The notes under the pieces were generated by a model. The model was not told the DNA's origin. It saw only the letters and a program-made list of their open reading frames with translations, and did not search any database. A stretch of DNA of 14,060 bases from Promethearchaeota archaeon (lineage in GTDB: Archaea > Asgardarchaeota > Lokiarchaeia > Sigyniarchaeales > SOKP01), in assembly GCA_048938445.1 (NCBI GenBank), contig JBHLME010000116.1:1-14060 (forward strand), given 5' to 3'. Shown piece after piece: positions 1-14,060 of the stretch. Position numbers and translations under genes: made by a program. Position 1 is the first letter of the stretch. Every line of letters begins with the position of its first letter.

Positions 1-1660
1 TAATAGTAATATTAACAAAGAATGGGAGATTATTATCTATATCAACATAATCTACAGTAAACCTTACGAAAACGTCATTACCTTCAAATAGAGAGGATAT
101 TTGAGGATAGACTAATTCTGGAGCATAATTATTTACTAAATTTACTTGTAAGTCATTATAAGTATTGCTTGAACTTTTATGAATTCTTTCTGCACATTCA
201 ATTGAATATGAATAATTAAAAGGTGATGGAAATAGTCGAGTTGAAAATATAAATTTGCATCCATCCGTGTAATCAACATCTAATGGATTTTCTTTATGCA
301 TTATATAAGTTGAATCATTTATCATGAGATGCACATAACTAGGTGCATCATTATCGATATCAGTATAGATAACTGAAAAATTATATAGTGTTGATTGATC
401 TCCTACATATGGATCAACAGATATGGATGATAAAATGGGTTCATTTTCATTTTTAGTATAATTAAATAAAATGGAAGTATGATAAACATAACTATCTGGA
501 AAAGTGTAAGAATTATAATAATTAGTATCAAGTCCTAAATTTAATCCAGAAAGGAAAAATTCTTTAATACCATTCAAGTCATGATAATTAAATACAATAT
601 CTCCAGACTCAAATAAGACTACTTGAAAATTACCATCGAATTTAGGTGATATAGCATTGATCCACTCTGCAACCCAATAAGTCTCGAAGGATTTAACATA
701 AACCATTGCTCCATCCAAAATGTAAGTGTTAAAATCACCCAAAAGGGGAGCTATCATATAATGATAAGATGGATCACCATTGGGAATAGAGATATAATCT
801 TCAATTAAGATTGGACTCGAATCTGTAAAACTAATATAACCTTTACCACTAACATGTACAGTAGAAAATGTTTTATTATAAAAAGTAAAATTGAAGGGTA
901 AATCATAAGATGAATACCCTATTTCTAGTACTGAGAATCCTATTCCGTCAGAAGTATCAATCCAATTATAATGGTATCCCACTTTCATATCATAATTCCT
1001 GGGATTGGTTTCTATCACAATGGGTCTCTCCGATACATTAAGATTTGTGTAAGTAACTGATGTGTTAATGAATACTCCATCTGAACAGTTAAAAAAATAT
1101 GAAGAGATACCGATATCATCAATTTGAGTACTATAACTATAAATACACCCATCGATATAACAATCATCAAGGGGATCTTGTTTTTTCATGTCGTATTTAA
1201 CGGAATTCAAGATGAGATTTACTGAAGTGGGCATGTTGTTATCTTGATCGGTATAATTAACAAAAAATGTAAATAGAGTACTTCCATTATATCCTATCTG
1301 AGGACTGACATGGCCTTCTGATAAAAGAGGTGCTAAATTATTAATCTCATTGACTTCTAAATCATTATGAATAGAGGTCGTGTCAATAAAAGCACCATCT
1401 GAACACTCAAAATAGTAGGTATAATTATGTAATGCTGGTTGAAAATAGGTTAAATATTGAAAAACGCACCCATCTTCATAATTATTATCTAAAGGATCAA
1501 CTTTTTGCATGGCATGTGGAGTTCCATTAACAACAACATTAATATAAGCTGGATGGAAATTATCTGCATCATTATAAGTTATTGAGAAGTTAAAAATGTG
1601 GTTTTGAAATTCGGAATGTGGAGTGAGTTTTTCATTTGTAAGAGATGGGGCAAATTCATT
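1..1660 (-). repeat. Four ~106-aa intragenic protein repeats (starts ~1660, ~1339, ~445, ~130; the last is truncated)
   Basis: Shared pattern N.AP.L...V.P......F.F.V.Y.D.DN..P..V...N.....M.K.DPLD..Y.DGC...Y......C(SDG). Examples: TYNDADNFHP / NYTDQDNNMP / IYTDIDNDAP / DYVDIDNNLP, and DPLDNNYEDGC / DPLDDCYIDGC / NPLDVDYTDGC. Confidence 0.9.
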
Positions 1661-4087
1661 TGGTAAGAAACTTACAGAAGCATTACCACTTCCATATATT
1701 GCTTTTACGATGAGATAATACTTTCCTGTTGTTGTAGGGATAAAATCTATAATTTCATCTTCACCTAATGCTGATGAAATACTTGATGCAACCATTATGG
1801 GTAATCCAATATCATTTGGAGAACTGCTATATAAATGTAAATCAAAATCTACTCCATCTGGAACATTTAATTTTAATTTGTAATTTACTCCCTTAATTAA
1901 ATCCAAGTTACAACCAAATCCATGCTTTTCAAATGGATCTATAACACTACTGGATATAATCATGCTCTTCTCGGAATTTATATCTAAATTTTGTGTAATG
2001 GTTTCTAAAGCAATATCTACATTCATTCTTCCGTATCCTTCATGGGCATCTCTTCCTCCACGATTGAGGAGGGGGCTATATTGTTCTGTACTTAATTCTC
2101 TCATCAGAGGATAAGTTTCTGTTGCTGACATCAATAGTAATGCCTTAATTCTAAGTACCTCAATAGCAGTATAATTCCAATTTTGGTGACCGCCCATAGC
2201 TTCAATTAATAAATTTACAGCACCAGCAACAGCAGGACAAGCCATTGAAGTTCCTTGCATACTAGCTAAATCATCGGGATACCCATCTGCAAATTGAATT
2301 CCAGCATCATAATCATTGCTGTCTGCGGAAAAGAACGTGCCACTAAGACGACTTCCTCCCGGAGCCATTATGTCCGGTTTATTGCTAGAACCTTGACTAC
2401 TATAAGAAGTAACTCGATCATCATTACCCATAGCAGCAACTGTAATTACTTTATCAGCATCTCCAGGAGAGCCAATATGATTTCCCTCAGGACCACGATT
2501 GCCAGCTGAAGTTACTACAACAATTCCTTGATCCACAGCATTATTGACTGCATTAATTACAGAGGTTTCACCGTCAGAATCATAACCCAAGCTCATTGAA
2601 ATAGTAGTTATGTTATATTTTATTTTATTGTATACCACCCAATTTATACCAGCTAGTAAACACGATGTTAATCCAGATCCCTTCTCATCCATTACCTTTA
2701 CTCCTACTAATTTAGCATCTGGAGCTACTCCTTTAAAAGGTTCATTAATATCAAATAGCTCTGGATTAAAAGGCCAATGGATTACTCCTCTAATTCCAAA
2801 ATAGGGATATCTACAATAATCATCTGAATCTCCATCAATAAAATTAATAGCATATCTTAGGGAGTAATCTCCCAAATCTCCACTTGTTACAATATAGGAG
2901 AGCGTGTGTGTCCAACTACTCGCGGATGTAGTGAATTCATCTACAATAACTTCATCATGATAGAGAAACACGTGTAATTCTACATTATCAACTCCTGGAG
3001 TCAAATCATTATAGAGACATTCAATTTCCACTATTCCTGGATCAGTAACTTGAAACCTTGATGCAATCGTCTCAAGAATCTGAGGATCAACGTAAGATCC
3101 TCTATAATCAATGTTCAATCCGTGAGTCGCGACTGTACGACCATTAGTATCTAATGACAGATTTCCATTACCTGCTGCAATTCCACTACAATGTGATCCA
3201 TGACCATGGTCATCATAGGGAGCGGAAATGCCATTTACTTGATCATTCCACCCTACAATTTTTGAAGTAAAATCACCATCAGAGTATCCTGGAGAAAATA
3301 ATGGATGGGTGTCATCAATACCCGTATCTAAAATGGCGATCGAACTATATCGATCGCCTGTATTGGTAAGATTTTTCCAGACATATGGTCTGAGGTTCAT
3401 ATTTCTCGAAGAATAATACAATTCCGTTTTACATTCAAGATCTTCTTCAATAAAAAAGGGGATCTCATTTTTATTTAAAATTGAAATAAAATCATTAAAG
3501 GCATTATAATCAACTTTGCCAGCAAAACCATTGAGGGCTGATTTGTACTCAAAGTGTATTATACCACCAAGATCTTCAAATAGGGAAGAAATTGGCTCAT
3601 AATTACATTCAGGGAATTGAATGATGATTGAGAGCTCCTCGCTACTAAGAGTATTAGACTCAAGTTGATTTATTGAGCCACTTAAATCTTTTAAAATTTC
3701 ATCTGGGGCAATATATTTTTTATTTTCTATTTCGGAACTCGTCGTAATAGTTGAATCTTTAAACTTATCAAGTTTTAATTCAAATTGATCATTTATTCCA
3801 TTAAGATTTTCATCCGCATTGAGTAAAGATTCTCTCCAAGTATAGAGATCTACAATATTTAATTCTTTCAAATCTATTGGGATCATGTCAGAATGATTAG
3901 AAAGCATGACTTCTTCAGAATAATAAGATTTGAAATCGGTAATTGGATTTATATAAAATATCCTGAAAAAGTTATAATTAAGTGAATGAAAATTAGAAAA
4001 AACTGAAATAATAATCACAAATGATAAAAATAGGCCTTTTAACCTAATTTTTCTCAAGGAATTTTTGGATAATGTTTTTACAGACAT
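1..4087 (-). CDS. Large secreted multidomain S8 (subtilisin-like) serine peptidase, 3'-truncated at the window edge (>=1362 aa)
   Basis: Manual minus-strand translation is open from ATG 4087 (alternative in-frame ATG 4096) to base 2. The N-terminus is basic then hydrophobic (MSVKTLSKNSLRKIRLKGLFLSFVIIISVF). An I9-like prodomain follows (~3650-3430, YKSALNGFAG). Catalytic motifs: IAILDTGID (Asp 3326-3328), DDHGHGSHCSG (His 3200-3202), SAGN (Asn 2498-2500), QGTSMACPAVAG (Ser 2246-2248). After these come a PPC-like domain (~1930-1670, DFDLHLY...GKYYLIV), ~106-aa repeats and a NIDO-like segment. Confidence 0.95.
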   Translation of the reverse strand, partial: MSVKTLSKNSLRKIRLKGLFLSFVIIISVFSNFHSLNYNFFRIFYINPITDFKSYYSEEVMLSNHSDMIPIDLKELNIVDLYTWRESLLNADENLNGINDQFELKLDKFKDSTITTSSEIENKKYIAPDEILKDLSGSINQLESNTLSSEELSIIIQFPECNYEPISSLFEDLGGIIHFEYKSALNGFAGKVDYNAFNDFISILNKNEIPFFIEEDLECKTELYYSSRNMNLRPYVWKNLTNTGDRYSSIAILDTGIDDTHPLFSPGYSDGDFTSKIVGWNDQVNGISAPYDDHGHGSHCSGIAAGNGNLSLDTNGRTVATHGLNIDYRGSYVDPQILETIASRFQVTDPGIVEIECLYNDLTPGVDNVELHVFLYHDEVIVDEFTTSASSWTHTLSYIVTSGDLGDYSLRYAINFIDGDSDDYCRYPYFGIRGVIHWPFNPELFDINEPFKGVAPDAKLVGVKVMDEKGSGLTSCLLAGINWVVYNKIKYNITTISMSLGYDSDGETSVINAVNNAVDQGIVVVTSAGNRGPEGNHIGSPGDADKVITVAAMGNDDRVTSYSSQGSSNKPDIMAPGGSRLSGTFFSADSNDYDAGIQFADGYPDDLASMQGTSMACPAVAGAVNLLIEAMGGHQNWNYTAIEVLRIKALLLMSATETYPLMRELSTEQYSPLLNRGGRDAHEGYGRMNVDIALETITQNLDINSEKSMIISSSVIDPFEKHGFGCNLDLIKGVNYKLKLNVPDGVDFDLHLYSSSPNDIGLPIMVASSISSALGEDEIIDFIPTTTGKYYLIVKAIYGSGNASVSFLPNEFAPSLTNEKLTPHSEFQNHIFNFSITYNDADNFHPAYINVVVNGTPHAMQKVDPLDNNYEDGCVFQYLTYFQPALHNYTYYFECSDGAFIDTTSIHNDLEVNEINNLAPLLSEGHVSPQIGYNGSTLFTFFVNYTDQDNNMPTSVNLILNSVKYDMKKQDPLDDCYIDGCIYSYSTQIDDIGISSYFFNCSDGVFINTSVTYTNLNVSERPIVIETNPRNYDMKVGYHYNWIDTSDGIGFSVLEIGYSSYDLPFNFTFYNKTFSTVHVSGKGYISFTDSSPILIEDYISIPNGDPSYHYMIAPLLGDFNTYILDGAMVYVKSFETYWVAEWINAISPKFDGNFQVVLFESGDIVFNYHDLNGIKEFFLSGLNLGLDTNYYNSYTFPDSYVYHTSILFNYTKNENEPILSSISVDPYVGDQSTLYNFSVIYTDIDNDAPSYVHLMINDSTYIMHKENPLDVDYTDGCKFIFSTRLFPSPFNYSYSIECAERIHKSSSNTYNDLQVNLVNNYAPELVYPQISSLFEGNDVFVRFTVDYVDIDNNLPFFVNITI

Positions 4088-4450
4088 ATTCCTCATCAAT
4101 ATATTATTTATTTATTATTTTTGAATCAAATGGTTGAGATTCCCTAATTTTAATTATAATTTAAAGATAATGATTTTAAGTCCAGTAATTAAATATTTAA
4201 TCGAAATAATATAAAAATGGATCTGGTAAATTATTGAATTATAAAGTCAAAAATTGAAAATATTAGAAAGAGAAAATTGAAAACTTTTAGTTAAGAATGG
4301 ATACAACCTATGGAAGATTTCAAACTTTTTAGTAATTTTAAAACTTCTATAATTCAATTAAGTTTTAATAGGATTAAAAAAATTAGTGATGCTATTGATG
4401 AAATTTGATATGATATCAAGAGCTTTACTAGAATTATATTGAATAAATGA

Positions 4451-6293: not shown

Positions 6294-8390
6294 ATGGATA
6301 GACATAAAGTCGCTATTGGACAATATCGAAAGAAATTTACTTCAGTAAAAAAGGTAATTAACCTTTCTGATGCGTTTAACGCCCTTTCTGGGAATGAAAG
6401 GGTATATTTAAAACCCAACATCGTCTTTTGGTCAAAAGATCCCTATTATTTAAAATATGGAGTGATTACTACATCTCGAGTAATGGAAGATGTGATCATT
6501 GCATTAAAAGAAATAGGAATAAATGATATCACCATAGGAGAGGGCACTGTAACGTCAAAACCAAATGATTTTGAAACTATTCACCATGCTTATGAAACAT
6601 TAGGTTATAATAAATTTAAAAAACGTCATGGTGTGAAGGTTATCAATATTTTTGAAAGACCGTTTGAGAAAGTGGATTTAGGAGATGAAATTGAACTAAA
6701 TTTTAACGCCGATGCTTTACATAGCGATTTTATTATTAGCATTCCTGTTCTAAAAACTCATTCTCAAACAAAAGTGAGTTTAGGTATTAAAAATTTAAAA
6801 GGATTAATTGATATTAATTCCCGTAAAAAATGTCATACACCCGATACAGTAAAAGATCTAGAGTTTTATATTTCTCGTTTACCAAAAGATCTTCCTCCTA
6901 CAGCAGCAATCATAGATGGGATATATACAAATGAAAAGGGTCCAGGTATAGATGGGAAAATGCGAAGGAGCAATATTTTAGTTGCTTCTTCGGACCTTTT
7001 TGCCGCGGATAAAGTTGGTTCAATGATTCTTGGTTATGAACCTTCAGATATTGGCTATTTTGTCCAATATGCAAAAGACAATAATAGAGCGTTAGATCTG
7101 TCAGATATAGAGATTGTTGGAAAAAAAATCGAAGAAGTAAAGATACCTCTTGCATATAAATTTGAATACACTGAAGATGGTTATACTGCTGTTGCTTTTG
7201 AAAAAATGGGTATAAAAGGGCTTAACTATCGTGAATATGATAATTCTTTATGCACCTATTGCTCAAGATTAACATCAGTATTAATGAATTCTATTTCTTT
7301 TGCTTGGAATGGGACTCCATGGGATGATGTGGAAATTTTAACGGGAAAAAGAATGGAACCAACTCCAGGAAAGAAAAAAACCATTTTATTAGGACAATGC
7401 ATGGTAAACAAACATCGAAATAATCCTATTATTAACGAAATGATTCCAATTAAAGGATGTCCTGCTAAAGTAGAAAATATTGTAAATGCATTGAAAGATG
7501 CGGGAATTGATGTAAATCCTGAAATCATTGAAAACATGGATAATTTATCAAGATTAAATGCTTTAACATATAGACATCGATTTAATGAATTTGACGAATC
7601 TCATTTTATCGAAGATATAGTACCTGAAACTGTGCCTCCAATAGATGCTATTGGAGCCAGTCAATTATATTTTGACTATAAAGGGGATGCATTAAATTGC
7701 GAACAAGCTAAATTTGAAGTAAGATTCTTTGGAATAGTTGGAGAAAAAAATACAAATGCCATAAAAAATATTCTAATTGAAGGCCCCCAAGGATATGAAT
7801 TCCAATTTAAGAAACAGCGCTTTGACATTCAGAATCTTAATGGATATATCGTGGATAATTTTAACCGAGGTATGATTAAATTCTTGGCGCATGATACAAA
7901 TGGATACTTAGAAGATGGCAACTATAATTTTACAGTAGAATATTGGACAGATGATATTAGGACTAAATCACGCAATTTAAAAACAAATAATAACCTCATT
8001 AATGAATACAAGAAGAATAGGGATAAGATCATTTATTCTCACGAAAAAAAACCGGAATATGAAGGAGATCCTAGTATTTACGCGTCTACTTCATGGACAC
8101 CTCTGAGTAAATTTGGTAGTGTTGATGCATACTATCAAAACTACGTGTCTGAAGGTAAAATCTCCATAGTTAATTTCCATGATTTAATTTTCTCAGATGA
8201 TATTTTTACATTATCCCTCCTGATGCCCTCCTATGGTTTAAATAAAGAGTCTTCTTTATTAAACGCTCGTTGGCGCCCCTTAAAATTGGAAACAGAATAT
8301 AGTTGGAACACGGAAATATTTGACTCCAACAACTTTGAAAGTCTTAATACCAGAATAATGCAACCAACCCAACATTTTATAATCTCATGA
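6294..8390 (+). CDS. DUF362-domain Fe-S protein with central CxxC/GxC/GCP module and ~250-aa C-terminal extension (698 aa)
   Basis: DUF362 motifs: VYLKPNIV, TIGEG, IPVLKTH...SLGIKNLKG, IIDGI...GP, D..AAD. Cys codons at 7251 and 7260 (CTYC), 7398 (GQC) and 7458 (GCP). The beta-rich C-terminal region from ~7630 is unassigned. Confidence 0.85.
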   Translation: MDRHKVAIGQYRKKFTSVKKVINLSDAFNALSGNERVYLKPNIVFWSKDPYYLKYGVITTSRVMEDVIIALKEIGINDITIGEGTVTSKPNDFETIHHAYETLGYNKFKKRHGVKVINIFERPFEKVDLGDEIELNFNADALHSDFIISIPVLKTHSQTKVSLGIKNLKGLIDINSRKKCHTPDTVKDLEFYISRLPKDLPPTAAIIDGIYTNEKGPGIDGKMRRSNILVASSDLFAADKVGSMILGYEPSDIGYFVQYAKDNNRALDLSDIEIVGKKIEEVKIPLAYKFEYTEDGYTAVAFEKMGIKGLNYREYDNSLCTYCSRLTSVLMNSISFAWNGTPWDDVEILTGKRMEPTPGKKKTILLGQCMVNKHRNNPIINEMIPIKGCPAKVENIVNALKDAGIDVNPEIIENMDNLSRLNALTYRHRFNEFDESHFIEDIVPETVPPIDAIGASQLYFDYKGDALNCEQAKFEVRFFGIVGEKNTNAIKNILIEGPQGYEFQFKKQRFDIQNLNGYIVDNFNRGMIKFLAHDTNGYLEDGNYNFTVEYWTDDIRTKSRNLKTNNNLINEYKKNRDKIIYSHEKKPEYEGDPSIYASTSWTPLSKFGSVDAYYQNYVSEGKISIVNFHDLIFSDDIFTLSLLMPSYGLNKESSLLNARWRPLKLETEYSWNTEIFDSNNFESLNTRIMQPTQHFIIS

Positions 8391-8501: not shown

Positions 8502-8936
8502 ATGAATGAAAGTAATGATGCAGTTTCGAGTTTCAAGAACGGTTTTAACTGTTCTCAATCAGTGTTATCTACTTTTAGCCCTCAATTTGGTCTTAATAGA
8601 GAAAAAGCATTAAAAATTTCTACTGGTTTTGGAGGTGGTATGGGGAGTATGGGTGAAACATGTGGTGCTGTCACTGGTGCTTTCATGGTTATTGGATTAA
8701 AATATGGAAGAATAAAAATAGAAGACACTCTAGCAAAAGAGAAAACATACCAAATGGTGAGGGAATTTGTCAATCAATTTAAAAAAATTTATGGTTCCAT
8801 TAAATGCAAAGAATTACTTGGTTGCGATATAAACACGCTTGAAGGAAAAGAAAAGGCAATGGACCAAAATCTATTTAAAGAGCTTTGCCCTAAATTTGTA
8901 GAAGATGCCGCTAAGATATTGAATAAAATCTTATAA
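8502..8936 (+). CDS. C_GCAxxG_C_C family putative redox-active protein (144 aa)
   Basis: GFNCSQSV, GFGGGMG..GETCGAVTGA, GSIKCKELLG and LCPKFV give the four-Cys signature of the family. An SD-like GAAGGT lies upstream. Confidence 0.92.
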   Translation: MNESNDAVSSFKNGFNCSQSVLSTFSPQFGLNREKALKISTGFGGGMGSMGETCGAVTGAFMVIGLKYGRIKIEDTLAKEKTYQMVREFVNQFKKIYGSIKCKELLGCDINTLEGKEKAMDQNLFKELCPKFVEDAAKILNKIL

Positions 8937-9347: not shown

Positions 9348-11537
9348 TTACTGGTATGGTTTAATTACATGAACTATATCATCATAATCTATTCCCAATT
9401 CCCTAACAAGTTCTATTGTAGGACACCCAAACGCGTTCCATCCCCGTTTTTGATACACTGCTTCTTGTAACTTGAAATATTGAATTTCTCGATGTTTTCT
9501 TAAAATGTTCATTTTTTCTTCTATTGTTTTATCTTTGAGATCTATTTCTAGTTGTTGCAGTTGTTCGTCATATCTTTCTTGCCGGCTCTCATATTCCATT
9601 TTAGTTACAGGACCCATTGCTCTATAAGGTAAGTTAGAATCATTTTCTCGCAGTCCCTTTCCTTGTCGAATGTTAAATATTCTCTGAAGAGTGTAGACTC
9701 TTTCAGACATCCTTATTAAATCATCCGGTTCGGACTTGATACCAGTTACTGCCGTAAAATAATCAGCATACCATTGGACATGTTGAGGGATTTTTGCTTG
9801 CAATAGTTCCCCTGCGATTTTAATGGGCAAGTCAAAATTGCTAGGAGGAGGAACGTCATTCCATGGTAGCTTGCATAATCCACATAATCCAAACCATGTT
9901 CTCCAAAGTGGAAACCAATATAATGCTTTAGCTTTATCTTCAAAAGTAGGGATAGAATGCCTGACAATATCCTCAAAAATTAACCAGGCTTCATCATGTT
10001 GAGGTCCTTTATTAGTTAAACCATATCCTCCTTGTTGAGTGAGTGATTCTTTAGTGACATATTCTGAAAATTCTAATCCTTTATGTTCCATACCAATGTC
10101 TTGAAGAAATTGTGGATCACCACTATATTTTTCAGCAAATAATTTCTTTAATCGCTTGATTCCTTCTCCCACCACATTTCCAAAACCTTCTCCTCTTGCG
10201 ATTTGATGGACTAATTCCATTGCATCAGCAGCATTACCAAAATTTAATTCAAGACCGCCAGTAATGTCTTTGTTAATGATCCCTTCCTCATAACATTCCA
10301 TGACAAAAGCTATTCCCGTTCCAACTCCTATCGTGTCAAGTCCGTAAGTATCACAGTAAAAATTTACTTCAAGCACCCACTTTGGGTCCCATACTCCCCA
10401 ATTTGAACCGCATCCTGCTATCGTTTCATATTCAGGACCATCAACAATGACCTTTTCACCTTTAAATGGACCTGTCATTACTTGATAATCTTTAACCCAA
10501 TGACTGCAACTTACACTACATCCATGAAAGCAGCCATCTGCTCCTTTCCCTGTGTGTTCTCCAAAGATTTCAAACCAATCTTGTCTTTTATATGGGATAT
10601 TTTTATCCTTAATTCCGCGGGGTTGACCAAATCGAAAGTTCTCGGTAGGTAATAAATCCGTCATATTCATTATATCAGGAAGATACCCAGTTCCTACAAA
10701 TCGCATTTGATTCATTGATGGGTCGTATGTTACGATTTCTTTTTTATGTTTCCTTCCAATTTCGGTTAATTTAGCTGGATCTGCGGGATCGTTTTTTTTA
10801 ACATCATATACAGGTGATCTGCAGGCAAGAGCCTTAAGACGTTTATCAACAAATACAGTACCTATTCCACCTCGACCTGCTTGCTTGTAAGAAGGCCATT
10901 TTCTCTTACGACTGTACCAAGAAGAATTCAACATCCCCCATCGAGAATATTTCGCACCAGGGCCAGTACTGACTACGGAAACCAGCTGCTTTTCTTTCTC
11001 ACTTGAATCTTTAGCAAATTGTTCTGTTAATTGTTGAGTAAGTAAATGAGAATAGTTAGAAAGATCATCTTTTTGTTCTACTTGTAGGAGTTGTATGACA
11101 TGATCTTGACCATTTATGAAAATAATCGTTTCTTGTTCTGATTTTCCTTGAATTTCTAATGCATCGAATCCCGAATATTTTAGATATGGACCAAAATGAC
11201 CCCCTACATTACTATCAATAATTATTCCCGTTAATGGTGATATGGAGGTAACAATTGATTTGCCTCCTCCAGGATAATAAGTTGATGCTCCAAGCGGTCC
11301 AGTTGCCCAGCATATTTCATTTTCAGGATCATCCCATTTTACAATTCTATCTTTTGGAAGAGAATTCCACATAAGCCATAAATCAAAGCCACGTCCACCA
11401 ACAAATTTTTCCTTCATTTCATCTGAAACAGGTTTAATTTTAATTTCATTGGTTGTTAGATTTATATATAACGTTCGATTTGTATATCCTCTAGACATTT
11501 TTTGATGCTCATATGTCAATTTTGCGACAATTTTCAT
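9348..11537 (-). CDS. aor: Tungsten-dependent aldehyde:ferredoxin oxidoreductase family protein (729 aa)
   Basis: AOR-family motifs: FVGGRG, SPLTG...SNVGG.FG..LK.SGFDA, QAGRGGIG, GCFHGCSVSC (Fe-S ligands), DGPEYET, CDTYGLDTI, LCGLC, and the C-terminal Y..RGW...G.PT. Confidence 0.93.
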   Translation of the reverse strand: MKIVAKLTYEHQKMSRGYTNRTLYINLTTNEIKIKPVSDEMKEKFVGGRGFDLWLMWNSLPKDRIVKWDDPENEICWATGPLGASTYYPGGGKSIVTSISPLTGIIIDSNVGGHFGPYLKYSGFDALEIQGKSEQETIIFINGQDHVIQLLQVEQKDDLSNYSHLLTQQLTEQFAKDSSEKEKQLVSVVSTGPGAKYSRWGMLNSSWYSRKRKWPSYKQAGRGGIGTVFVDKRLKALACRSPVYDVKKNDPADPAKLTEIGRKHKKEIVTYDPSMNQMRFVGTGYLPDIMNMTDLLPTENFRFGQPRGIKDKNIPYKRQDWFEIFGEHTGKGADGCFHGCSVSCSHWVKDYQVMTGPFKGEKVIVDGPEYETIAGCGSNWGVWDPKWVLEVNFYCDTYGLDTIGVGTGIAFVMECYEEGIINKDITGGLELNFGNAADAMELVHQIARGEGFGNVVGEGIKRLKKLFAEKYSGDPQFLQDIGMEHKGLEFSEYVTKESLTQQGGYGLTNKGPQHDEAWLIFEDIVRHSIPTFEDKAKALYWFPLWRTWFGLCGLCKLPWNDVPPPSNFDLPIKIAGELLQAKIPQHVQWYADYFTAVTGIKSEPDDLIRMSERVYTLQRIFNIRQGKGLRENDSNLPYRAMGPVTKMEYESRQERYDEQLQQLEIDLKDKTIEEKMNILRKHREIQYFKLQEAVYQKRGWNAFGCPTIELVRELGIDYDDIVHVIKPYQ

Positions 11538-11761: not shown

Positions 11762-12559
11762 CTATTTTGAACCATAAAGATGATCAATTTCTTTCATTAT
11801 TTCCTCTTCTGTAACATCTCTATCTTCAATAGGGAAATGTCTTTTATTAAAAAATTTTTTAAAACTTTTTGGCATTGTCCATGCAATTAATGAGCCTAAT
11901 GAAAAAGAACTTGCAAGTATTGCTCTAAATAGAAATGATAAATCGTAAAAAAACCTAAGATAGATGGGATTAAATCGTCCTATAACAAGGAGGAATAGGG
12001 GCATCCCAAGGTTGCTATATGCTAAGGCTACGATCCCACTTAATAAATACCGAATCTTTATCCAAGGTTCTATATTCATATTCCTGTATTTAGAATATTG
12101 TTTTAATGAGATATATGCAAACCAATAACCAGAAATTGCATGATCAATACTATAAGAAATCGCGTAAATAAACAATGCTATTGCAGTTAATTGAGTTAAA
12201 GTTCTAGTAAAAAATTGCATTATAAATGCAAAGAAAAAATTACCAATTAATAATGGTACTACTATTTTATAAGGACTCTTCTTCTGCTTATAAAATGTTT
12301 TTTGAATAAATGTTACTATTAATAATTGACTCGTTAAAGTTAATACTTGGAATATAGGTGCCCATAATTCACTTTCAATATAAACCATCAACCGTGATAG
12401 CAAGAATGAGATACCAACCGTTAAGTTAAATAAAGCTAAATATAATAAATTCCTTATTTTTGAATTGATGGTTTTATATATAAGCATAATCCCTATTAAA
12501 AGTTGAATTGTAAGGGTTGGAACTAATAAAGTCATATCAGGTATGGGATTTAGTGCCAT
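11762..12559 (-). CDS. Stand-alone seven-transmembrane protein, function unknown (265 aa)
   Basis: Seven hydrophobic segments are visible by eye: LLVPTLTIQLLIGIMLIY; LLYLALFNLTVGISFLL; IFQVLTLTSQLLIVTFI; IVVPLLIGNFFFAFIMQFF; IALFIYAISY..AISGYWFAYI; YLLSGIVALAYSNLGMPLFLLVI; FLFRAILASSFSLGSLIAW. Loops after TM1, TM3 and TM5 are basic. An amphipathic PKSFKKFF and an acidic TEEEIM tail follow TM7. Confidence 0.8.
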   Translation of the reverse strand: MALNPIPDMTLLVPTLTIQLLIGIMLIYKTINSKIRNLLYLALFNLTVGISFLLSRLMVYIESELWAPIFQVLTLTSQLLIVTFIQKTFYKQKKSPYKIVVPLLIGNFFFAFIMQFFTRTLTQLTAIALFIYAISYSIDHAISGYWFAYISLKQYSKYRNMNIEPWIKIRYLLSGIVALAYSNLGMPLFLLVIGRFNPIYLRFFYDLSFLFRAILASSFSLGSLIAWTMPKSFKKFFNKRHFPIEDRDVTEEEIMKEIDHLYGSK

Positions 12560-12594
12560 TTCTATATTTATTTCCTTTTTTGTTAAAAATTATT

Positions 12595-12870
12595 TTAAAA
12601 TTTATCCATAGTAATTAATGATTGATTTTCTTTTAGTTCTAATAATAATAAAGCAATTAAATCTTCTATATTATCAAATTTTAATCTCACTAATCTTTCC
12701 TTTAAGGCATTTTCAATCGAATATTTCAAATCTAGATAAGTCACTTGATTAAAATCGAAATATGGTCCTAATTGATCCTTAATAGATAATTTTATCAAAC
12801 CTCGAGTTGCTGATGGACTTATATTAATCTTTTTAGCAAGGATGTCTGATAGATAATTAATTATCGTCAA
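12595..12870 (-). CDS. Small all-helical hypothetical protein (91 aa), probably co-transcribed with the 7TM gene
   Basis: TTG start with SD-like GAGGAG upstream. Leu/Ile periodicity suggests helices. The gap to the 7TM ATG is only 35 bp. Confidence 0.75.
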   Translation of the reverse strand: MTIINYLSDILAKKINISPSATRGLIKLSIKDQLGPYFDFNQVTYLDLKYSIENALKERLVRLKFDNIEDLIALLLLELKENQSLITMDKF

Positions 12871-13009
12871 TAATAATGCTCCTCAGTTCTTATTAAATTC
12901 AATCTATAGTATTAACTGATATCTCCTATCAAGTGAAAAATTTCAATTTTAGTATTAGAACTAAATTTAACCGTATATGGTGGACTATTTTAATTTCTAT
13001 AACTATTCG

Positions 13010-13028
13010 AAAAAAATATAAAAAAAAA
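13010..13028 (-). terminator. Oligo-T tracts downstream of the histidine kinase
   Basis: Two long A runs on the + strand (T runs on -), ~55-70 nt after the stop at 13081. Confidence 0.35.
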
Positions 13029-13080
13029 TATTTATAAATCTTCCTTTTATTTTCAGAAAACTAATTAGAGTCAAAATAAT

Positions 13081-14060
13081 TTATTTGCTTTCTGGAATCA
13101 TTATGCTGAATTTAGTTCCTTGAGATGGATCCCCCTTGATTTTATCTTCTACCCAAATTTCACCGCCATATGCATCTATTAATTTTTTAACAAGTGTTAA
13201 TCCGAATCCCATTCCTTTTGAACGCTTTTCTTTTTTATGACCTTCTTTAAAAATTATTTGTTTCAGTGCATCACTGATTCCGATACCATTATCAATAATA
13301 TCAATTTTTATATGGTCAATATCATTCTTTCTTTCCTTTAACATACTGATGTAAATTTTCACGGGAGTATTCTTATTATATTTTATGGAATTTATCAGTA
13401 TATTTTCAAACACACCTACTAACAGGTCATTAGCTTTAATCGTGAGATTTTTATCAGGAAAATTACCATATATGATGACTTTCTTCTTTTCATAACTTTT
13501 ATAAATGAAATCAATCGCATTTTTTAAAACTTCACAGACATTTACAATTTTTAAGAATTCATCTGGTTTTTCCTCTAATCTTGATAATTGCCGGATATTA
13601 TATATTAATTTAATCCCATTTATCACTTGTTCATTAATGATATTCATCATCTCATCAATCTTTTCAGATTTATTCTCTTGATTCTTGTAAAACTTATAAA
13701 CTTGAAAAGAACCCTTGATATTATTCAAAATATTGAGCATATCATGAGTAAAAATGTCTTTATAAAAATCAGCCTGTTCATATGCTTTTCGATAATTTTC
13801 TTCAGAGGTTTGTAATTTTTGTTTTGCATTCTCCATCTCAGTAATATCTTCAAAAATTGCCATTCCTAAAGGTTTATCATCAATGGTAAGTAAAGAAAGA
13901 TTAGGACGAATTAAAGCACTCGAACCATCTTTTTTAATTACTTCTATTTCAATAGGTTTTATTTTTTCTCCTTTTTGATGACTAATTAATCTTTTTTTAA
14001 GAATAGGTATTTGTTCAGGGTTCATCAATTCAGGTAGATGTAAATAATTTTTACCCTTTA
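13081..14060 (-). CDS. PAS-domain sensor histidine kinase, 5'-truncated
   Basis: The frame stays open past the track start (14028) to the window end (...KGKNYLHLPELMNPEQ). PAS/PAC end: KKDGS...FEDITE. H box FTHDMLN (His 13744-13746), N box FENILINSIKY, G1 IIDNGIGI, G2 GMGFGL, and GTKF. Confidence 0.95.
   Translation of the reverse strand, partial: KGKNYLHLPELMNPEQIPILKKRLISHQKGEKIKPIEIEVIKKDGSSALIRPNLSLLTIDDKPLGMAIFEDITEMENAKQKLQTSEENYRKAYEQADFYKDIFTHDMLNILNNIKGSFQVYKFYKNQENKSEKIDEMMNIINEQVINGIKLIYNIRQLSRLEEKPDEFLKIVNVCEVLKNAIDFIYKSYEKKKVIIYGNFPDKNLTIKANDLLVGVFENILINSIKYNKNTPVKIYISMLKERKNDIDHIKIDIIDNGIGISDALKQIIFKEGHKKEKRSKGMGFGLTLVKKLIDAYGGEIWVEDKIKGDPSQGTKFSIMIPESK

Follow-up and report, generated by a model that had tools for sequence, protein, structure and literature searches.

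A recurrently paired or fused seven-helix membrane protein and four-helix soluble protein of Asgard archaea: a probable membrane sensor with soluble histidine kinases as frequent neighbours

The stretch of DNA analysed here (the window; 14,060 nucleotides) is the whole of contig C43 (1-14060) in the 4.63-Mb, 256-contig genome of a Promethearchaeota archaeon, and it carries, on its reverse strand, a gene for a 91-aa soluble protein followed by a gene for a protein with seven transmembrane helices (7TM). An earlier interpretation of the letters alone (the sequence-only reading) had proposed that the two are a receptor lacking a fused output domain and its dedicated partner, encoded 35 bp apart with the small gene upstream; the coordinates of the open reading frames (ORFs) agree with this spacing, and Pfam and NCBIfam gave nothing above cut-off for either protein and no output domain, while PADLOC matched neither. 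The ORFs are not chance ones, because in an exhaustive HMMER search the 7TM protein matched 161 of 1.84 billion cluster representatives at E <= 0.001, with 57 of the matches at <= 1e-10, and because the gene pair recurs across many genomes. The small gene starts with TTG, as it does at the aligned position in the closest relative of the window pair (locus L112), and probably shares one transcript with the 7TM gene. We consider it very likely that the two genes encode the halves of one protein unit. This unit, which occurs mainly in one Asgard (Lokiarchaeia-type) order, is probably a lineage-restricted membrane sensor in either split or fused form, and the reading that we prefer, to which we give a probability of roughly 0.55, is that it feeds soluble histidine kinases of the PAS type.

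The linkage of the two parts was followed in 43 loci of 33 genomes, namely the window, 11 other loci of its own genome and 31 loci from 31 other genomes, which are mostly the best-scoring match per genome, plus two relatives of the window protein from a search of the genus. A small gene lies within 120 bp and on the same strand for 46 of the 49 7TM genes in these loci, upstream in 21 cases and downstream or fused in 25, the one small gene being counted for both neighbours in the five loci with the order 7TM-small-7TM. Searches of the window's own genome with the two proteins gave 13 matches for the 7TM protein and 15 for its partner; 11 of the 13 7TM copies adjoin a small gene, and in two of these the genes are fused, giving single ORFs of 351 and 345 aa on contigs C226 and C93 with the small domain at the C-terminus. 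Likewise, the small gene adjoins the 7TM gene in 28 of the 30 best loci of a search of the phylum. Among the 150 best representatives, 17 are at least 300 aa long and 16 of these carry the small domain C-terminally, as called by a local hidden Markov model (HMM) made from eight own-genome copies, so that fusion of the two parts is found in about a tenth of representatives. The recurrent pairing and the paralogue expansion for which the sequence-only reading had suggested looking are therefore both present. Its proposal of a dedicated partner is supported by this pairing and by the predicted interface described below, but its proposal of signalling in trans is not: the pattern of pairing and fusion suggests that the small protein is an obligate part of the receptor on the cytoplasmic side, and not a messenger that acts on its own.

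Two small genes of the same genome have no adjacent 7TM gene. One, at C109:10478-10744 (-), lies between genes for deoxyhypusine synthase and a URO-D-like protein; the other, at C184:24625-24876 (-), lies at a contig end, and its partner could be beyond the assembly. A third membrane-protein gene, following the pair on C68, was rejected as a family member, as it scored only 9 bits, with a bias of 42.9, against the family model.

A Kyte-Doolittle scan of the 265-aa protein gave seven hydrophobic segments, and the AlphaFold2 (AF2) model, made with an alignment of 71 sequences (A1), has a mean predicted local distance difference test score (pLDDT) of 93.3 and a predicted template modelling score of 0.87. 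Its helices lie at residues 5-33, 37-60, 66-89, 97-120, 125-159, 165-196 and 198-228, followed by two more at 231-237 and 251-263. Lysine and arginine residues together number 3, 5, 5 and 8 in the loops at 28-40, 86-98 and 143-174 and in the tail, respectively, compared with 0, 0, 1 and 2 in the remaining loops; this excess in alternate loops and the tail places the N-terminus outside and the C-terminus inside (N-out/C-in), which fits the position of the soluble domain after the 7TM C-terminus in the fused relatives. The topology proposed from the sequence is thus confirmed by hydropathy, charge, model and fusions. Also as proposed, an amphipathic PKSFKKFF segment (230-237) and an acidic TEEEIMKEI tail (250-258) are both present, coinciding with the last two AF2 helices, and within them P230 (98%), K234 (84%) and E251 (95%) are conserved in the 71 relatives. 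Helix 7 of the window protein contains no lysine, and at any one helix-7 column no more than 2 of the 71 relatives have one, in agreement with the view that the protein does not bind retinal. One of the 71 members of A1, a protein of 235-285 aa, has ankyrin-repeat Pfam hits (Ank_3, 6.8e-11), unexpected for so short a 7TM protein.

Conservation in the 7TM family is strongly graded across the membrane. The commonest residue has a frequency of 0.14 in the outer loops; along the helices the value is 0.23 for the outer thirds, 0.32 for the middle and 0.49 for the inner thirds, and for the cytoplasmic loops and tail it is 0.47. Every residue that is at least 80% conserved sits at a cytoplasmic helix end, in a loop or in the tail. 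The conserved residues are F84, T88, F89, W146, Y155, P165, W166, K168, R170, Y171, W227, M229, P230, K234, N238, E251 and E253; F84, F89, W146, R170, W227, M229, P230 and E251 are near-invariant, and no column of the 71-sequence alignment is invariant. The polar residues that had been suggested as the lining of a ligand pocket exist in the window protein, but the positions concerned (Q19, N45, Q71, Q78, N107, Q115, D139, H140 and R212) all vary across the family. Such variation fits a diversifying sensing side, and it fits an absence of constraint equally well.

The small partner is modelled with similar confidence (AF2 pLDDT 94.5), with helices at residues 2-15, 19-34, 45-62, 68-81 and 85-88. 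In an alignment of 34 partner sequences (A2), G24, L28, Q83 and S84 are invariant, and the motifs RGLIKLSIKD and, at the C-terminus, NQSLITM are conserved. The fold has no clear structural match; a PDB sequence-profile search with the partner family gave only matches at E >= 0.27, and no Pfam family is common to more than 3 of the 34 members. Histidine phosphotransfer (HPt) domains carry a conserved phospho-accepting histidine on a four-helix bundle, and we rejected such a domain for the partner, since histidine occurs in none of the A2 columns that are invariant or nearly so. A search with the partner profile for longer proteins gave three matches, of 523, 327 and 363 aa. The 523-aa protein P0157, encoded on a 2,275-bp metagenome contig, has an aconitase Pfam domain (PF00330) together with a stretch 52% identical to the partner, and may be a join made in gene calling or a rare fusion of another kind. 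In the window's own genome, a 455-aa HMGL-like/homocitrate-synthase-type protein (C226:13568-14932, -; locus L053) passed E <= 0.001 once with the local HMM of the small domain and was absent from the later domain-level run; it is probably a false hit.

Prediction of the complex of the two window proteins gave ipSAE scores of 0.58, 0.71 and 0.69 (median 0.69), whereas the highest score among three controls was 0.00. Of the complexes with a solved structure, 58 of 80 attain the mark used for this score, as do 2 of 110 mismatched pairs. Contacts agreed to at least 80% between runs, and the pLDDT of the partner was at least 83. The tightest predicted contacts join residues 80-89 of the partner to residues 88-93, 150, 154, 161-171 and 38 of the 7TM protein, which are the inner ends of helices 3, 5, 6 and 2, so that the C-terminal tail of the partner is predicted to lie in a crevice of the cytoplasmic face; in addition, the receptor tail (244-261) touches helix 1 of the partner. 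The predicted 36-residue interface contains 8 of the 17 7TM residues that are at least 80% conserved (Fisher p 5e-4) and 11 of the 20 conserved residues of the partner (p 0.026). It is unlikely that the pair passed from the memory of the predictor, because a sequence search found no solved relative for either chain.

Matches to the 7TM protein at E <= 1e-5 were found in 78 of 400 genomes of the phylum, and the strong ones come chiefly from three families of one order, the window's own (43 of 134 genomes) and two others (8 of 14 and 3 of 4); six candidates were scored per genome in this search, and the copy numbers are lower bounds. All named relatives are 'hypothetical protein' entries of Lokiarchaeota/Promethearchaeota bins, plus one bin labelled Bathyarchaeota, and the nearest Atlas clusters are all hypotheticals of Promethearchaeota, with no eukaryotic cluster among them, which bears out the Asgard host that the sequence-only reading had put as a condition. 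Profile searches of the PDB with the 7TM family gave no match at E <= 1, and Foldseek comparison of the 7TM model with the PDB gave nothing at E <= 0.001, the best rows being G-protein-coupled receptors (GPCRs) and rhodopsins at E 0.07-1 (best 0.066) with TM-scores mostly of 0.4-0.56. Pfam scans of the 71 7TM and 34 small-domain relatives showed no consistent family, and a Tetraspanin match in 6 of the 71 7TM members was taken as compositional.

The surroundings of the pair in the window are listed in Table 1. Upstream of the small gene, 210 bp away and on the same strand, is the gene for a histidine kinase, the 5' end of which is missing because the window is the entire contig and the gene reaches its end. 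Residues 96-325 of this kinase match the 514-aa PAS-PAS kinases of loci L062, L063, L065, L067 and L068 at E 1.9e-46 to 1.6e-53, and those kinases adjoin 7TM/small pairs in five other genomes. From its letters, the element between the kinase gene and the pair may be a terminator of the kinase gene and/or a promoter of the pair, and the T6 runs beyond the 7TM gene are a possible archaeal oligo-T terminator. No response regulator is encoded on the 14,060-nt contig. The large ORF that leaves the contig start has a long C-terminal region with repeated cysteine-containing modules (YYFECSDG, YFFNCSDG and YSIECAE in the translation).

Table 1. Features of the window. Coordinates are positions in the 14,060-nt contig.
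Feature	Coordinates	Strand	Basis
ORF of 1366 aa leaving the contig start; Peptidase_S8 (subtilase) domain at residues 455-690	2-4099	-	
DUF362 protein, 698 aa, with a long C-terminal extension	6294-8390	+	
C_GCAxxG_C_C redox protein	8502-8936	+	
Aldehyde:ferredoxin oxidoreductase	9348-11537	-	
Two T6 runs just past the 7TM stop codon	11720-11751	-	Sequence reading
7TM gene, 265 aa, N-out/C-in	11762-12559	-	ORF, hydropathy, AF2
Spacer of 35 bp from small gene to 7TM gene	12560-12594	-	ORF coordinates
Small gene, 91-aa four-helix partner domain	12595-12870	-	ORF, TTG start
GAGGAG, Shine-Dalgarno-like word 8 nt 5' of the small-gene TTG	12879-12884	-	Sequence reading
TTTATAAATA word, then T9 and T7 runs, between kinase stop and small gene	13010-13038	-	Sequence reading
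PAS-HisKA-HATPase_c histidine kinase gene	13081-14058	-	Pfam HATPase_c 4.3e-20, HisKA 8.8e-4; NCBIfam

A link to two-component signalling fits the wider set of loci, as a HisKA-HATPase core, recognized with a local model, adjoins the module in 17 of the 43 loci, the window included. Five arrangements occur: kinase-small-7TM (the window and L104), kinase-7TM-small (L062, L063 and L065), 7TM-small-7TM-kinase (L067, L068, L107, L109 and L110), small-7TM-kinase (L074, L075, L078, L106 and L108), and a kinase together with a divergent HisKA-receiver gene (contigs C214 and C24 of the window's genome). Of the 72 genes lying no more than two positions away from 20 loci of other genomes, Pfam identifies 10 as encoding PAS plus HATPase_c kinases. 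Hydrophobic segments are absent from 15 of the 16 adjacent kinases checked, a set that leaves aside the 5'-incomplete kinase of the window, and the kinase-linked 7TM genes are spread over four or more separate clades in a quick tree. In the window's genome, with 45 HATPase_c matches in 4.63 Mb, about 1 of the 13 loci would be expected by chance to have such a match within 4 kb, and 3 have one.

Several of these neighbourhoods have features of their own. The row of 7TM, small, 7TM and PAS kinase of the 514-aa class is conserved in five genomes of the same family (L067, L068, L107, L109 and L110), and its two 7TM genes belong to different clades of the quick tree; in this row, the single partner domain may be shared by two different receptors, or the two receptors may form a pair. 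At C214:66-4651 and C24:4873-10694 (L054 and L056) the same layout is repeated, with a PAS kinase (819 and 1184 aa), a divergent HisKA-receiver protein (299 and 247 aa), a 7TM gene and a small gene, and the 819-aa kinase is the only adjacent one with hydrophobic segments (four). Genes for Arf/Rag-like GTPases lie near 2 of the 13 loci of the window's genome, and about two would be expected within 4 kb from 89 matches to the Arf model. One of these places, C154:10517-13962 (L049), has two tandem 7TM-small pairs followed on the same strand by a gene for a 318-aa Gtr1/RagA-Arf-like GTPase, which is within chance. The remaining neighbours form no consistent pattern: among the 72 genes were four ECF riboflavin S components, three GH20 hydrolases and one CheR-CheD fusion. 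The last, of 618 aa, belongs to another genome of this family (L072:3625-5478, +), where its gene lies two genes upstream of a pair of 7TM and small genes.

We prefer the sensor reading because the family combines a receptor-like gradient of conservation, paralogue expansion, an absence of conserved polar residues within the membrane and recurrent kinase neighbours. In the mechanism that we propose, the variable outer half of the 7TM bundle would be the sensing side, set against a strongly conserved cytoplasmic face, to which the 91-aa four-helix domain would be permanently bound, with its NQSLITM segment in the predicted crevice between the inner ends of helices 2, 3, 5 and 6 and its helix 1 predicted to pack on the acidic tail helix of the receptor. 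A stimulus in or across the membrane would alter this face and the domain bound to it, and the altered face or domain would in turn modulate a soluble PAS histidine kinase, often one encoded adjacent. A kinase without any membrane segment of its own would in this way receive, through the unit, an input from the membrane or from outside the cell.

A number of observations weigh against this reading. A kinase adjoins fewer than half of the loci, 26 of the 43 being without one, and the excess of kinases in the window's own genome is by itself weak (binomial p about 0.08). The neighbour counts also include related genomes, which are not independent of one another. In the clade of four rows to which the window belongs, linkage to a kinase is seen only at the window; L112, whose proteins are 46% and 56% identical to those of the window pair, has an oxidoreductase-like gene upstream and no kinase. 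Separate transcription of the kinase gene and the pair is suggested by the T runs and the TATA-like word lying between them, and adjacency could also arise if the kinase regulated the module instead of receiving its input. As to the contact between the two proteins, the interface is a model and ipSAE is the model's own confidence, a test that split-gene pairs tend to pass, and the agreement of interface with conservation is not independent evidence, because the predictor saw the same alignments. Co-divergence of the two parts was weak and uninformative (rho 0.28, p 0.06, for 10 own-genome pairs).

The alternative that survives these considerations best is that the pair is a two-subunit membrane protein with no part in signalling, such as a channel, a transporter, a lipid-handling enzyme or a structural protein, and that the kinases control its expression or adjoin it by chance. 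The loci without a kinase next door accord with this, as do fusion and obligate pairing, which would suit any two-subunit complex, and the structural look-alikes in the Atlas include YhhN-like clusters (TM-score 0.62 by query and 0.71 by row) and the membrane region of SpoIIE (0.65). However, the lack of a conserved polar or charged residue within the membrane would be unusual for a transporter or an intramembrane enzyme, and Pfam transporter and enzyme families gave no consistent match among the 71 members. Kinase adjacency, moreover, recurs in at least four clades, and paralogue expansion with a variable outer half resembles the behaviour of a receptor family. We therefore regard a non-signalling role as possible but rather unlikely.

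It is much less probable that the 7TM protein is a true, very distant homologue of the eukaryotic GPCRs, with the small protein or a small GTPase acting as the G protein. The shared seven helices and N-out/C-in topology, the short helix after helix 7, the predicted place of the partner's C-terminal segment inside the cytoplasmic crevice and the Arf/Rag-like genes near two own-genome loci all invite the comparison, and passages of the preprint 10.64898/2026.10.28.762692 describe four Asgard-eukaryote structural clusters labelled GPCR, one 'class C GPCR', with '7TM proteins' given as earlier reported signature families. Sequence and profile comparisons nevertheless reveal no similarity. The Foldseek matches to GPCRs are the poor ones given above; the window protein matched no Pfam GPCR family at E <= 1, and 1 of the 71 members had a weak match (0.0015), to Serpentine_r_xa; and the nearest Atlas clusters are all archaeal. 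The GTPase genes, too, are no more frequent nearby than chance predicts, and the partner has the fold of a four-helix bundle instead of that of a GTPase; it also appears to be permanently bound, unlike the partner of a GPCR, because it is fused to the receptor in some relatives. Homology to GPCRs, and a bearing on the origin of eukaryotic 7TM signalling such as the sequence-only reading had raised, is unshown.

A light sensor of the microbial rhodopsin kind, with retinal or another chromophore and the small protein as transducer, is close to refuted: sensory rhodopsins do use a separate transducer, but the Schiff-base lysine, invariant as K192 in 16 aligned Asgard rhodopsins (A5), has no counterpart in this family, PF01036 had no match in the window's genome (eight candidates scored) while rhodopsins were found in 16 of 151 genomes of the phylum, and hhalign comparison of the family with the 16 Asgard rhodopsins gave a probability of 0.26% over 10 columns.

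As a system, the arrangement proposed here can still be compared with that of haloarchaea, in which sensory rhodopsin II acts with the transducer HtrII and the kinase CheA. Both have a stand-alone 7TM protein of the same fold class, with the seven-helix bundle in the rhodopsin arrangement, which has no output domain and a separate partner, and which would, in the present case, signal to a soluble histidine kinase. They differ in that the family described here has neither the retinal lysine nor any profile similarity to rhodopsins, in that HtrII is a transducer anchored in the membrane by two helices and extended by a long coiled coil whereas the present partner, of 91 aa, is a soluble domain of four helices predicted to bind the cytoplasmic face, and in that the neighbouring kinases are of the PAS-HisKA-HATPase_c type and not CheA. 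The bacterial 7TMR-DISM and 7TMR-HD receptors, reportedly described by Anantharaman and Aravind in 2003, are likewise prokaryotic seven-helix receptor modules, feeding kinases, cyclases or phosphohydrolases. Their outputs are fused and an extracellular domain is common, in contrast with the 7TM protein studied here, which stands alone but for its small partner domain; in Pfam searches exclusive of profile-profile comparison, neither family was matched by the window protein (E <= 1) or appeared among the 25 commonest families of the 71 members (E <= 0.1).

In three-component systems, such as LiaF-LiaS and BceAB-BceS, an accessory membrane protein controls a membrane-anchored histidine kinase. 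The likeness is that a kinase would receive its input from a distinct membrane protein encoded next to it; the difference is that nearly all of the adjacent kinases checked here have no hydrophobic segment. A LiaF-TM Pfam match of the 7TM protein was set aside as weak (E 0.031, below the cut-off) and not common to other members. The 7TM ion channels (7TMIC; the insect Or/Gr superfamily) have the opposite orientation to that indicated here by the positive-inside counts and the C-terminal cytoplasmic domain. Proteins of the PAQR/adiponectin receptor/hemolysin III group have conserved zinc-binding histidines within the membrane and an N-in topology, and the family was not assigned to this group, as it has neither feature.

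Passages of PMC13466386 mention the sensory rhodopsin II/HtrII/CheA system, and passages of PMC5847659 list HisKA_7TM among the archaeal sensor domains. HisKA_7TM (PF16927) is, like the family described here, an archaeal 7TM region of an input kind associated with HisKA/HATPase_c kinases, and it was present in other Asgard families (15 of the 151 genomes searched). However, the 7TM protein here is never fused to a kinase, as the best 150 representatives are no longer than 385 aa and their extension is the small domain, and a dedicated partner domain does not form part of the description of HisKA_7TM. The kinship to HisKA_7TM that the sequence-only reading had thought possible was not borne out: PF16927 had no match in the window's genome (nine candidates scored), and alignment of A1 with 17 Asgard HisKA_7TM domains by hhalign gave a probability of 13.8% over 42 columns. 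An Atlas cluster in which 10% of the members are HisKA_7TM proteins scored 0.88, below the bar of 0.9.

In the literature that we consulted, we found no description of the 7TM/small pairing or of its link to kinases; the supplementary lists of the preprint cited above, which lay outside this comparison, might include the family. The terms '7TM' and 'GPCR' are absent from the main text of Eme et al. 2023 (PMC10307638). According to passages of PMC10343646, Asgard kinases are mostly cytoplasmic and rich in PAS domains, and those without membrane segments are usually read as sensors of internal signals. A more far-reaching version of the sensor reading, which we think improbable, is that a 7TM protein of GPCR fold takes the C-terminal tail of its transducer into a crevice between helices 3, 5 and 6, with the geometry by which GPCRs engage G-alpha, and so drives soluble PAS kinases that lack an input of their own, as an ancestral or convergent form of GPCR-style coupling. 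If that were true, Asgard two-component signalling would have in this unit its missing input from the membrane. Since the fold is GPCR-like and no known group is closer to the eukaryotes than that of the host, the family lends itself to testing whether GPCR-type coupling arose before them. If the sensor reading itself is true, an expanded set of stand-alone 7TM sensors beside soluble kinases would show how Asgard cells sense the outside, and the catalogue of prokaryotic signalling would gain an unannotated receptor family together with a new partner domain.

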